Below are positions 35,882 to 38,719 of a stretch of 64,000 nucleotides of DNA, in pieces (the stretch's first letter is position 1; each line of letters begins with the position of its first letter). Source of the stretch: Lacunisphaera sp. (GTDB lineage: Bacteria > Verrucomicrobiota > Verrucomicrobiia > Opitutales > Opitutaceae); contig JAQSCO010000014.1 in assembly GCA_029945445.1 (NCBI GenBank), positions 161,755 to 225,754 of the forward strand, written 5' to 3'. A program made the translations under genes and the position numbers. Below the pieces are notes generated by a model. The model was not told the DNA's origin. It did not search any database and saw nothing but the letters and a program-made list of their open reading frames with translations.

Positions 35882-37015
35882 TCATTGACGGCACACCTGC
35901 CGGTAGAGGGCCTCGTAGCGCGGGATGATGACGGCGGCGGAGAAGTGCTCGCGGGCGCGTTTTTGCGCGGCTTGGCCGAGGGCGGCGCGGCGGGTGGGAT
36001 CGCTGAGCAGTGACTCGGCGGCGGCGGCGAGGGCGGCGGTGTCGCCGAAGGGCGCGAGCAAGCCGGTTTCGCCGGACAGCGTGACCTCGGGAATGCCGCC
36101 GACATCGAACGCCACGCTCGGGCAGCCCAGGCTCATCAATTCGAGGATGCTCAGGCAGAAGCTTTCCGTTTCCGAGGTGAAGATGCCGAGGTCGGCCGCC
36201 TGCAGGTAGTCCTCGATGTCCGTCACGCGCTCGCGCACGACGATCCGGTCGGCGATGCCACGCTTCGCCGCCTCGGCGATCAGCAAGGTGGGGCTGCCTC
36301 CGGCGAGGACGACGAACTTGAAACGGTGGCGCGGGGCCAGGCGCGCGACTGTTTCCATCAGCAGGTCGATGCGCTTGAGGGCGCGCAGGTTCGAGCTGTG
36401 GAGGAGCATCATCTCGCCGTCGGCCAGCCCGAGTTCGCGGCGCATGTCGACCCGCGGGCGCGGCGCGGGGTGCGGCTCAAAAAAATTGTGGATGACCTCA
36501 ATGGGACGTTTCACCCCGAGCAGGCGTACGGTCTCGCGGCGCATGAACTCCGAGACCGTGGTGATCGCGTCGGAATGCTCCAGGGCATGAGTGATGGCGG
36601 GGCCGTATCCGGGATCGCGGCCGAGCAGCGTGGTGTCCGTGCCGTGCAGCGTGGTGATGACCTTGGGCCGCTGGTGGGCCGGCAGCATGGAGCAGGCAAG
36701 GAACGCGGCGGTGGCGTGGGGCACGGCGTAGTGGACGTGCAGCACGTCGAGCCCGTGGTCGCGGCTGACCTCGGCCATCTTCACCGAGAGCGGCAGGGTG
36801 TAGTCGGGATGCTTGAAGAGGTCGTAGCTGTTCACCACCACGGGGTGGAAGAACACCCGCGGGCCGGCCGGCATGCGGAACGGCGGATCGTAGCTGATGA
36901 AATGGACCTCGTGGCCACGGGCGGCCAGCTCCTCGCCCAGCTCGGAGGCAAGGATGCCGCTGCCGCCGACGGACGGGTAGCAGGTGATGCCGATCTTGAG
37001 GGGGCGGTCAGACAT
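35882..37015 (-). CDS. bshA: N-acetylglucosaminyl L-malate synthase BshA (GT4)
   Basis: KIGITCYPSVGGSG, HFISY..PFR, LHVHYAVPHA, TTLHGTD.TL.G, ESFCL..LE. Confidence 0.9.
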   Translation of the reverse strand: MSDRPLKIGITCYPSVGGSGILASELGEELAARGHEVHFISYDPPFRMPAGPRVFFHPVVVNSYDLFKHPDYTLPLSVKMAEVSRDHGLDVLHVHYAVPHATAAFLACSMLPAHQRPKVITTLHGTDTTLLGRDPGYGPAITHALEHSDAITTVSEFMRRETVRLLGVKRPIEVIHNFFEPHPAPRPRVDMRRELGLADGEMMLLHSSNLRALKRIDLLMETVARLAPRHRFKFVVLAGGSPTLLIAEAAKRGIADRIVVRERVTDIEDYLQAADLGIFTSETESFCLSILELMSLGCPSVAFDVGGIPEVTLSGETGLLAPFGDTAALAAAAESLLSDPTRRAALGQAAQKRAREHFSAAVIIPRYEALYRQVCRQ

Positions 37016-37026
37016 GCGACAGAGAA

Positions 37027-37105
37027 TTCACCACGAAGGCACGAAGACACAAAGTTCCGACTTCGTTGGCCCGGTTCCTTGGTGCCTCCGTGTCTTGGTG
37101 GTGAA
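37027..37105. repeat. 28-bp imperfect inverted repeat with CACGAAG-periodic arms
   Basis: TTCACCACGAAGGCACGAAGACACAAAG (37027-37054) versus reverse complement of 37078-37105, 23/28 identical. Confidence 0.85.
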
Positions 37106-37126
37106 AAACAGGATTCATGGATGGAT

Positions 37127-37849
37127 TCAGAATTGTCTGGCTGATCGGGTGAGTTGCGCGAGCGAGCCAAACACCAGCGGGTCGTTGGGATAGAGCGGCT
37201 GGGCGCAGACGAGGCCGGCGTTGAGGCCATGCGCGCGGGCGCGGGCGAGCTGCAGTTCGACGTAGTTGCGCGTCTTCATCTGCGAGGCGTGGGCCTCCAT
37301 CGCGGCCTGCCAGGTGGCGACGATTCCCGGTGTTGAAATATCAATGAGCACCGGCGCGATGTCGGTGGGTTCAGCGCCTGGTCCCAGGGCATAGAAAAAC
37401 AATTGGCCGATGGCGTGCGGGCGCAGCTTGCGCAGTTCCTTCAGGCCGCCGTAGCGCGCGAGCCGCGTGGCATCGCGGACGAGCGTACCGAGCCGCCAGT
37501 GGTCCGGATGCTGATTCTGCGCGACGGTCGGCGCGAGGACGATGCCCGGCTTCACCCGGCGGATGATGGCCGCGAGCCTGAGGGCGTGCGCGGACTTGAG
37601 CTCGAGATGGGCGTCGCCGTCGAGTTCGAGGAACTCGGTCGTGGCGCCGAGGATCTTCGCGGCCTGCTTCGCCTCGGCGGTGCGCTGCCTGGGCGTGCCG
37701 TTGGTGCCGGCTTCACCGCGGGAGCAGATGACAAAGTGCACGCGCCGGCCGGTGCGGGTCTCGTTCGCGATGATGGCACCCGCGCCGAACTCGATGTCGT
37801 CGGGGTGCGCGCCAAAGGCGAGGAGGGACGGAAGGGAAGCGGGTTTCAT
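37127..37849 (-). CDS. bshB1: BshB1-like GlcNAc-malate deacetylase (PIG-L family)
   Basis: AFGAHPDDIEFG, SRGEAGTNGT..QRTAE, QHPDH; adjacent to bshA. Confidence 0.85.
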   Translation of the reverse strand: MKPASLPSLLAFGAHPDDIEFGAGAIIANETRTGRRVHFVICSRGEAGTNGTPRQRTAEAKQAAKILGATTEFLELDGDAHLELKSAHALRLAAIIRRVKPGIVLAPTVAQNQHPDHWRLGTLVRDATRLARYGGLKELRKLRPHAIGQLFFYALGPGAEPTDIAPVLIDISTPGIVATWQAAMEAHASQMKTRNYVELQLARARAHGLNAGLVCAQPLYPNDPLVFGSLAQLTRSARQF

Positions 37850-37868
37850 GGATCGGGAGGAGGGGAAG

Positions 37869-37936
37869 ATTAAAATTTAATAGACTACAAAGGCTCCCCG
37901 GGCAGCCGGCAGTTTGTAATATAATACGTTACAAAC
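37869..37936. repeat. TAATA-centred palindrome doublet
   Basis: GTTTGTAATATAATACGTTACAAAC (37912-37936, 10 of 12 pairs) plus a degenerate partner at 37871-37889; GC-rich spacer contains CCCGGG. Confidence 0.65.
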
Positions 37937-37945
37937 GGATTTGGG

Positions 37946-38719
37946 TCAGGCGGGGAGTTCGGTGTAGGCTTCATCGGAACGGTCGATGGGGTCGCGGGGG
38001 ACAAAGGTTATCTCAGGCGCGTCGGCTTGGTTCAAGTAGGCCTGTTCGCCGGCGCCGCAGATATAGTGCGTGCAATGAATGACGGATTGCATCCAACGCA
38101 AGCGGCTGTCGCGCGTCGGGCTGATTTGCTCCTTCGTGAAGTCGGACTGGGGCAGCGTCAGGTAGCTGTCGCCACCCTCGTGGAGCTTGAGCACGCCGTC
38201 GATGAGCCGGGCCCGGACGACTTCGCCCTCGTGGGTCACGTCGACGAAGCAGTCCGTGATGGCGCACGCGGCGCGGCGCACCGCCGGGTCGCCCGAGCGA
38301 ACGACACGGATGCCCTCGAGCAGGCCCATGCGGCGATACATCTCGAGGCAGAAGTCGGCGGCGTTCGTGGCGGCGACCTGCTTGAACGCCGCGACCCAAT
38401 GTGGATGGACGAAATTGGGCAGCTGGCGCGCGGTGTGCGCGGGCCAGTCGGCGGGTATGCGCTTGGCGAAAAGGGGCGAAAACTTCCGCTGGAGCTTGTT
38501 CACGAAGGTGAAATTGAGGGTCGTCGGCTGGCCGGCGCGGAGGTCGCGCAGGATCGTCTGGGTCTCGCGGCAGTCGTGGTCGCTGTCGTGCAGGAAGAAC
38601 ACGATCTCGCCGCCGATCTCCGCCTGCAGTTTGCGCGCGGTCGCGAACTTGGCGTAGAGGAACCGCCGCGGGAAGAACCCGCAGGGTTGCTGGCCGAAGC
38701 AGATGACGGGGGAAGACAT
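37946..38719 (-). CDS. bshC: Short BshC-like protein (putative cysteine-adding enzyme core)
   Basis: GQQ...K..ARKL...VFF..DSDHD..E and ISP...LRWMQ....YICGAGEQAY...PR correspond to the two conserved BshC blocks; adjacent to bshB1-bshA. Confidence 0.72.
   Translation of the reverse strand: MSSPVICFGQQPCGFFPRRFLYAKFATARKLQAEIGGEIVFFLHDSDHDCRETQTILRDLRAGQPTTLNFTFVNKLQRKFSPLFAKRIPADWPAHTARQLPNFVHPHWVAAFKQVAATNAADFCLEMYRRMGLLEGIRVVRSGDPAVRRAACAITDCFVDVTHEGEVVRARLIDGVLKLHEGGDSYLTLPQSDFTKEQISPTRDSRLRWMQSVIHCTHYICGAGEQAYLNQADAPEITFVPRDPIDRSDEAYTELPA

Follow-up and report, generated by a model that had tools for sequence, protein, structure and literature searches.

A probable Rossmann-core-only BshC homologue beside bshA and a bshB1-like gene in an Opitutaceae verrucomicrobium: a candidate operon for a bacillithiol-type thiol

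We analyzed a 64-kb stretch of a Lacunisphaera sp. assembly (contig JAQSCO010000014.1, positions 161,755 to 225,754; hereafter the window, on the whole of which all coordinates are given) that carries a candidate operon for bacillithiol or a related low-molecular-weight thiol. An earlier note, made from the sequence alone, had placed three adjacent, co-oriented minus-strand genes at 35882-38719 and read them as a complete bshC-bshB1-bshA cluster of a probable verrucomicrobium. Open reading frames (ORFs) were found at exactly those borders, as follows.

35882-37015, minus strand: bshA, 377 amino acids (aa); TIGR03999 equivalog with a full-length match to solved BshA
37127-37849, minus strand: bshB1-like LmbE/PIG-L zinc deacetylase, 240 aa; PIG-L domain, best NCBIfam family TIGR04001
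37946-38719, minus strand: mini-BshC, very probably a BshC homologue reduced to the Rossmann core, 257 aa; fold and profile-profile match to BshC

The genes are separated by 111 nt (bshA/bshB1-like) and 96 nt (bshB1-like/mini-BshC). Since the GC content of the window is 61-72%, spurious ORFs are abundant in it; the trio has the codon-position composition of the window's real genes, with GC values of 0.84-0.90 at third positions (GC3) and 0.45-0.50 at second positions (GC2). A scan of the block for promoters and terminators gave counts not above those of shuffled sequence and thus did not inform the operon borders. Downstream of and convergent with bshA lies a plus-strand ORF (31107-35858) for a 1583-aa single-polypeptide 2-oxoacid:ferredoxin oxidoreductase resembling pyruvate:ferredoxin oxidoreductase, with POR_N, PFOR_II, POR, 4Fe-4S and TPP_enzyme_C domains and only 23 nt between its stop codon and that of bshA. 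The sequencing runs that contain the locus are all DNA metagenomes from freshwater sediment.

The assignment of bshA is secure. The protein scored 381.6 bits against the NCBIfam equivalog model TIGR03999 (cut-off 273.7) over profile positions 1-374 of 375, and it aligned end to end with crystallized BshA proteins, both from Bacillus anthracis (2JJM/3MBO, E-value (E) 1.6e-88, residues 5-376) and from Bacillus subtilis (5D00, 4.5e-82). Two N-terminal segments, CYPSVGGSG and TTLHGTD, match crystallized BshA exactly or almost exactly, and the Pfam domains Glyco_transf_4 and Glycos_transf_1 make up a full-length GT4 two-domain architecture. The second gene can be assigned less strictly. Its product matched Pfam PIG-L (3.4e-23), has the LmbE/PIG-L fold and carries the zinc-binding motifs AHPDD and HPDH. 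BshB1 is its best NCBIfam family by a wide margin (TIGR04001, 133.7 bits, as against 32.7 for BshB2 and 30.3 for MshB), and its nearest solved relatives, aligned over about 215 residues, are BC1534 (2IXD, 1.9e-22) and B. subtilis BshB1 (6P2T, 1.5e-20). Because the TIGR04001 score lies below the equivalog cut-off of 182.5 bits, we filed the 240-aa protein as BshB1-like, so that the bshB1 call made from the sequence holds for the family of best match but not for the strict equivalog.

The third protein is invisible to sequence-based annotation. No match was found for it in Pfam, NCBIfam or the PDB sequences (phmmer; hmmsearch with the family profile also missed 4WBD, the B. subtilis BshC structure), and with the threshold relaxed to E 10 the Pfam BshC model PF10079 still matched no protein in a set of 12 family members. 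A phmmer search against 1.84 billion representative proteins returned 248 clusters at E ≤0.001; the 150 matches listed all belong to the same short family, with no canonical-length BshC among them, and the database name of these relatives is 'hypothetical protein'. One metagenomic representative of 475 aa (P0200) is a frameshifted read-through that runs from mini-BshC into the N-terminal part of the BshB-like protein encoded downstream, and several other representatives are frameshifted fragments, which calls for caution in the automated clustering of this high-GC family.

Structure prediction points specifically to BshC. An AlphaFold2 model of the window protein, built from 12 family members without templates, reached a predicted local distance difference test score (pLDDT) of 94.5 and a predicted template modeling score (pTM) of 0.90, and when it was searched with Foldseek against 350,542 PDB chains the sole significant match was 4WBD (E 7.7e-11, probability 1.0, TMq 0.64); the next matches, class I aminoacyl-tRNA synthetases, had E of about 1e-2. 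A second model was made from an independent alignment that was headed by an archaeal relative (43-45% identical) and left the window protein out. This model (pLDDT 91.5) also had 4WBD as its best PDB match (E 4.2e-12, probability 1.0, TMq 0.66), and its next match stood at 4.8e-4.

Profile-profile comparison is consistent with the fold search. We built a five-member BshC profile from the 4WBD sequence and annotated BshC proteins of Deinococcus, Staphylococcus, Paenibacillus and Bacillus, the latter four drawn from chromosome-like records in a plasmid collection. Three mini-family alignments compared with this profile by hhalign gave P-values of 8.4e-5, 7.5e-5 and 2.6e-5 over 217-221 columns, covering BshC residues 87-360; in the second of these, mini-BshC residues 7-230 were aligned with BshC 87-358 over 221 columns. 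The scores were 42-45, whereas 20 column-shuffled and 2 reversed controls scored at most 23 over at most 57 columns. Significance was obtained only with the five-member profile, as hhalign against a single BshC sequence gave the correct register without being significant. Despite an identity to BshC of 14-16%, the motifs GQQxG, K, DxDxxE, R and GxGExxY, which are invariant in the five BshC proteins, are conserved in the mini family, and a PR on the last strand, past the end of the hhalign alignment, was also matched by eye.

Residues 1-86 of BshC, an internal stretch at about 243-283 (about 40-50 residues) and everything after about residue 385 are absent from mini-BshC, and there is no room for these parts because the gaps flanking the mini-BshC gene are only 55 and 96 nt long. 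In 4WBD the C-terminal part forms a coiled-coil dimerization domain, and of the BshC architecture of about 540 aa, which comprises an N-terminal region, a core with connecting peptides and this coiled coil (PMC4360819), only the Rossmann core is kept. One cysteine, Cys124, is invariant in all three mini-family alignments, and Cys7 and Cys216 are mostly conserved; no cysteine is conserved among the five canonical BshC proteins in the alignment. The idea that Cys7, Cys124, Cys216 and His218 might form a zinc site like that of cysteinyl-tRNA synthetase (CysRS) or MshC is weakened, since only Cys124 is invariant across phyla.

The 257-aa protein thus has the BshC-specific core fold, the sequence motifs and the linkage to bshA and bshB, and is not matched by the family hidden Markov model (HMM). 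Co-occurrence and linkage with bshA and bshB are also how BshC was originally discovered. We regard the protein as a BshC homologue with high confidence. The earlier call of bshC stands in this remote sense, as supported by fold search and profile-profile comparison, for a truncated protein. Likewise, the three-gene block is present, but to call it a complete canonical cluster overstates what ordinary annotation supports, because the bshC ORF has half the length of BshC and is matched by no BshC model.

We next consider how widely the arrangement is kept. When each GTDB species was represented by a single genome, relatives of mini-BshC turned up in at least 599 of the genomes scanned. The 80 best matches, at 73-86% identity, are all from Opitutaceae or unclassified Verrucomicrobiota and include Lacunisphaera, Oleiharenicola, Opitutus and Didemnitutus, in agreement with the suspected verrucomicrobial origin of the window. 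Of 80 Opitutaceae loci, six are cut by contig ends; among the 74 with enough flanking sequence the order mini-BshC, BshB-like, BshA is complete in 70 and incomplete in four. More distant carriers, by their NCBI names, are Kiritimatiellia, Chthoniobacterales, Opitutales, Candidatus Polarisedimenticolia (Acidobacteriota) and Candidatus Aenigmatarchaeota. Informative loci among these are the following, in which the large PIG-L, small ORF, DUF2911 and sodium:solute symporter (SSF) genes correspond to further genes of the window block described below.

L097, Polarisedimenticolia: mini-BshC, BshB1-like (164.8 bits), BshA (383 bits), large PIG-L, small ORF, SSF, DinB_2, DUF2911
L096, Kiritimatiellia: DUF2911, large PIG-L, small ORF, SSF, mini-BshC, ParE/Phd insert, BshB1-like, BshA (406.7 bits)
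L093: mini-BshC, whose stop codon abuts an equivalog-level BshA gene (364.7 bits)
L085, archaeal contig with PolD, Cdc6 and aIF2-beta, 8001-9430: mini-BshC tail-to-tail with a BshB1-like gene
L095, Aenigmatarchaeota, 8001-13012: mini-BshC tail-to-tail with a BshB1-like gene (155 bits), adjoined by genes for inositol-1-phosphate synthase and an archaetidylinositol-phosphate-synthase-like protein

The same gene order is kept in Opitutaceae, Kiritimatiellia and Acidobacteriota contigs, and the arrangement of the trio is therefore not due to chance. In the Polarisedimenticolia locus the first five genes, including the bsh trio, overlap start to stop. Locus L094 likewise shows linkage of mini-BshC to bsh genes. 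The insert of the Kiritimatiellia locus (8839-9469) is a ParE/Phd toxin-antitoxin pair on the opposite strand, between the mini-BshC and BshB1-like genes.

Purifying selection acts on mini-BshC, and no other gene of the block is as well conserved. Its ratio of nonsynonymous to synonymous substitution rates (dN/dS) was 0.12-0.33 against eight Opitutaceae orthologues, the lowest or near-lowest of four genes in most comparisons, and its amino-acid identity had a median of 77% over 80 species-level genomes, compared with 71% for BshA, 70% for the BshB-like protein, 64% for the large PIG-L protein and 62% for the symporter. These values bear on the possibility that mini-BshC is a non-catalytic BshC remnant, acting as a scaffold or regulator while another enzyme encoded elsewhere in the genome, be it a canonical BshC or an unrelated protein, adds cysteine. 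The loss of half of BshC, dimerization domain included, would fit such a remnant, and our search covered 64 kb of the genome. A remnant would not, however, be expected to be the best conserved gene of its block with a low dN/dS, nor to keep, across phyla, the very motifs that are invariant in BshC. In addition, tblastn gave no significant match to canonical BshC in the window or in about 80 fetched flanks, and no Verrucomicrobiota in RefSeq have been listed with the canonical three-gene pathway. We consider a remnant very improbable.

The distribution also bears on the chemistry. A BshC homologue could ligate a group other than cysteine, or act on another glucosamine (GlcN) glycoside, such that the product is a different glucosamine conjugate, for example a solute, a modified lipid head group or a metabolite that is not a thiol, instead of bacillithiol. 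The low identity to BshC and the lack of an HMM match leave room for such a change, and every BshB-like protein scored falls under the BshB1 cut-off. The Aenigmatarchaeota copy, with no BshA in view, adjoins the BshB1-like gene and the two other genes named above, of which the inositol-1-phosphate synthase gene bears an intein. In one lineage, represented by two loci, mini-BshC is immediately preceded by a GNAT acetyltransferase gene that is placed between gatA and gatB (L087 1590-2135, L088 425-970); its product is weakly similar to MshD (24.5 bits), and its placement recalls mycothiol synthesis, in which MshD acetylates Cys-GlcN-Ins. On the other hand, in every bacterial lineage examined that has a linked glycosyltransferase, this enzyme is an equivalog-level BshA (365-407 bits), and the BshC-specific motifs are kept. 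The Polarisedimenticolia operon also contains a DinB_2-family gene (L097 15076-15696, after the symporter); S-transferases for bacillithiol and mycothiol are among the DinB-type proteins, and by this analogy the gene is a hint that the block has to do with thiols. On balance, a different ligand or acceptor appears unlikely to us, although it deserves more weight than a remnant.

Upstream of the trio, the window block continues with five further genes on the same strand.

38775-40475, minus strand: sodium:solute symporter of the SSF family, sugar/YidK-like, 566 aa; Pfam SSF, TIGR00813
40472-40615, minus strand: small single-pass membrane ORF, 47 aa; its stop codon overlaps the SSF start
40728-43199, minus strand: large PIG-L/LmbE-domain protein, 823 aa; signal peptide, Pfam PIG-L at residues 48-183
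43209-43859, minus strand: DUF2911 protein with signal peptide; Pfam DUF2911 8.4e-37, synteny
43939-44910, minus strand: second DUF2911 protein; Pfam DUF2911 2.8e-55, synteny

The start of the symporter gene was revised by homology to locus L001 to a GTG at 40475, the mechanical 642-aa ORF being over-extended. Of 72 Opitutaceae loci, 70 have an SSF gene immediately before mini-BshC, and the same placement is seen in Kiritimatiellia, Chthoniobacterales and L093; in L093, L094, L096 and L098 the two genes overlap or are separated by at most 4 nt. The 47-aa ORF is 56% identical to a 44-aa ORF that precedes SSF in Opitutus sp. GAS368 (tblastn 1.5e-12), and ORFs of 38-60 aa occupy the equivalent place before SSF in L094, L096 and L097, so that the feature spans Opitutaceae, Kiritimatiellia and Polarisedimenticolia; its product is likely an accessory subunit of the symporter. 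About 600 residues of the 823-aa LmbE-domain protein have no Pfam match, and its best NCBIfam matches, mycothiol conjugate amidase Mca (32.8 bits) and MshB, are weak. The gene is syntenic in Opitutaceae, Kiritimatiellia and Polarisedimenticolia, and together with the DUF2911 genes it is co-inherited with the bsh genes across three phyla.

A rival reading of the block builds on these partners. In a salvage scheme, the secreted LmbE amidase/deacetylase would process an external N-acetylglucosamine (GlcNAc) or thiol conjugate, the symporter would import the product and mini-BshC would re-acylate it, with de novo synthesis by BshA and BshB secondary; the seven-gene block would then serve mainly for salvage and uptake. 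The near-constant placement of SSF next to mini-BshC is consistent with this scheme, as are the signal peptides on the large PIG-L protein and the DUF2911 protein at 43209-43859, the resemblance of the symporter to sugar-type YidK and the choice, weak as it is, of Mca as the nearest NCBIfam family. Against it, BshA is a biosynthetic enzyme and is encoded in the same operon, and the similarity to Mca is slight. We consider a mainly salvaging block improbable, somewhat more so than a change of ligand. The scheme is nevertheless compatible with a thiol operon, and the symporter with its small peptide, the large LmbE-domain protein and the DUF2911 proteins may, speculatively, supply or salvage a substrate for it.

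The explanation that we favor, with moderate confidence on the grounds of homology and conserved synteny, is that the trio, as one operon, encodes the synthesis of a bacillithiol-type thiol, either Cys-GlcN-malate or something close to it. The inference of bacillithiol or a variant thiol made in the earlier note is plausible. BshA would join UDP-GlcNAc to an acceptor, presumably L-malate, to give GlcNAc-malate; the BshB1-like zinc deacetylase would convert this into GlcN-malate, freeing the glucosamine amine; and mini-BshC, with its Rossmann core like that of class I aminoacyl-tRNA synthetases, would add what is presumably cysteine to the free amine. It would do so without a coiled-coil dimerization domain and with cysteine in a presumed activated form. 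A candidate for an NmbA-like enzyme leading to N-methyl-bacillithiol was rejected, the SAM methyltransferase at 11366-12172 having only one weak PDB match ('Methyltransferase type 12', E 2e-4). Among the 30-odd remaining genes of the window, Pfam scans recognized neither gshA/gshB nor bacilliredoxin, YpdA or DinB genes, which has little bearing on the whole genome.

Several points weigh against such an operon. Mini-BshC lacks about half of BshC, shares 14-16% identity with it and is recognized by no HMM, and the BshB1-like protein misses the BshB1 equivalog cut-off. Beyond the 64 kb covered here, a canonical BshC or gshAB may be encoded elsewhere. A plain cytosolic three-step pathway leaves the symporter, the secreted deacetylase and the DUF2911 partners unexplained. 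The archaeal context of L095 has no nearby BshA, and the mini-BshC family may therefore act on other GlcN-glycosides. Finally, nobody has yet reconstituted the reaction of canonical BshC or identified the activated cysteine that it uses (PMC4360819, PMC5790435), nor did our literature search find a later report of reconstitution; to say that a protein works like BshC thus rests on a poorly defined reaction.

The proposal departs from current surveys. Verrucomicrobia have been described as having no documented or predicted low-molecular-weight thiol (Hiras et al. 2018). A RefSeq survey by phylum in the 2025 NmbA paper (PMC12719100) used BshA, BshB and BshC of C. tepidum as queries and required proteins of similar length with coverage above 80% and identity above 25%; its supplement lists Verrucomicrobiota and Kiritimatiellota without a complete bacillithiol pathway, and no archaea with one. 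Because similar length and more than 25% identity were demanded, a half-size BshC of 257 aa and 14-16% identity would escape this survey. No publication joining bacillithiol and Opitutaceae was found in our literature search. What is new here is the minimal form of BshC, the least well understood enzyme of the pathway; this form has not been recognized before, while the pathway logic is known.

We conclude that a thiol pathway probably exists in this freshwater Opitutaceae verrucomicrobium, whose phylum is listed in surveys as having none. A broader proposal, to which we give slightly less than even chances, is that mini-BshC is a self-sufficient minimal cysteine-adding enzyme and the sole BshC-type protein of its hosts, and that bacillithiol-type thiols extend to Verrucomicrobiota, Kiritimatiellota, further Acidobacteriota and even DPANN archaea, all of them listed at present without a predicted low-molecular-weight thiol or without a complete pathway. 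If mini-BshC is functional, bacillithiol-type redox buffers would gain at least 599 species genomes, including those of abundant freshwater and soil Opitutaceae. A natural core-only BshC would also delimit the catalytically essential part of the enzyme and may ease work on its biochemistry and structure. Moreover, because it consists of the core only and always occurs with a symporter and a small peptide, mini-BshC could expose the missing co-substrate or partner of BshC.

Elsewhere in the window, a cluster resembling type II secretion and type IV pilus systems (19322-30346) includes genes for a secretin (28220-30346), a T2SSE ATPase (26506-28269) and a T2SSF protein (25210-26433), and seven consecutive plus-strand ORFs at 19322-24900 that adjoin these genes have no Pfam match at E 1e-6. 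At 39-2507 on the plus strand, an 822-aa mechanical ORF has an MsrB (SelR) methionine-sulfoxide-reductase domain only at residues 691-805; it is probably over-extended, the real gene being short, because its GC3 of 0.78 is the lowest of 43 selected ORFs.

Among known systems, mini-BshC is closest to BshC (YllA; PF10079/TIGR03998; 4WBD), with which it has in common the Rossmann-type core, a collinear register, shared motifs and the linkage to bshA and bshB. The two differ in length (about 540 aa for BshC versus 257 aa), in the N-terminal 86 residues, internal insert and coiled-coil domain that mini-BshC lacks, in the invariant Cys124 and in the visibility of BshC alone to Pfam and NCBIfam; in contrast to canonical bshC, the mini-BshC gene nearly always follows an SSF symporter gene. 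MshC, which performs an analogous amide ligation of Cys to GlcN, and the class I aminoacyl-tRNA synthetases (CysRS and the glutamyl-, glutaminyl- and tyrosyl-tRNA synthetases) share the class I Rossmann nucleotide-binding fold with mini-BshC. These synthetases are its next structural matches after BshC, weaker by 5-8 orders of magnitude; no HIGH or KMSKS motif is evident in mini-BshC, and MshC is not among the structural matches listed. The window trio agrees with the canonical bshA-bshB1 operon of Bacillus in its first two enzymes and in the logic of the pathway. The bshC gene of B. subtilis, however, belongs to a different operon (PMC4360819, PMC5790435), whereas in the window the three genes are contiguous, in the order C-B-A, inside a block with the symporter, the large LmbE-domain protein and the DUF2911 proteins.

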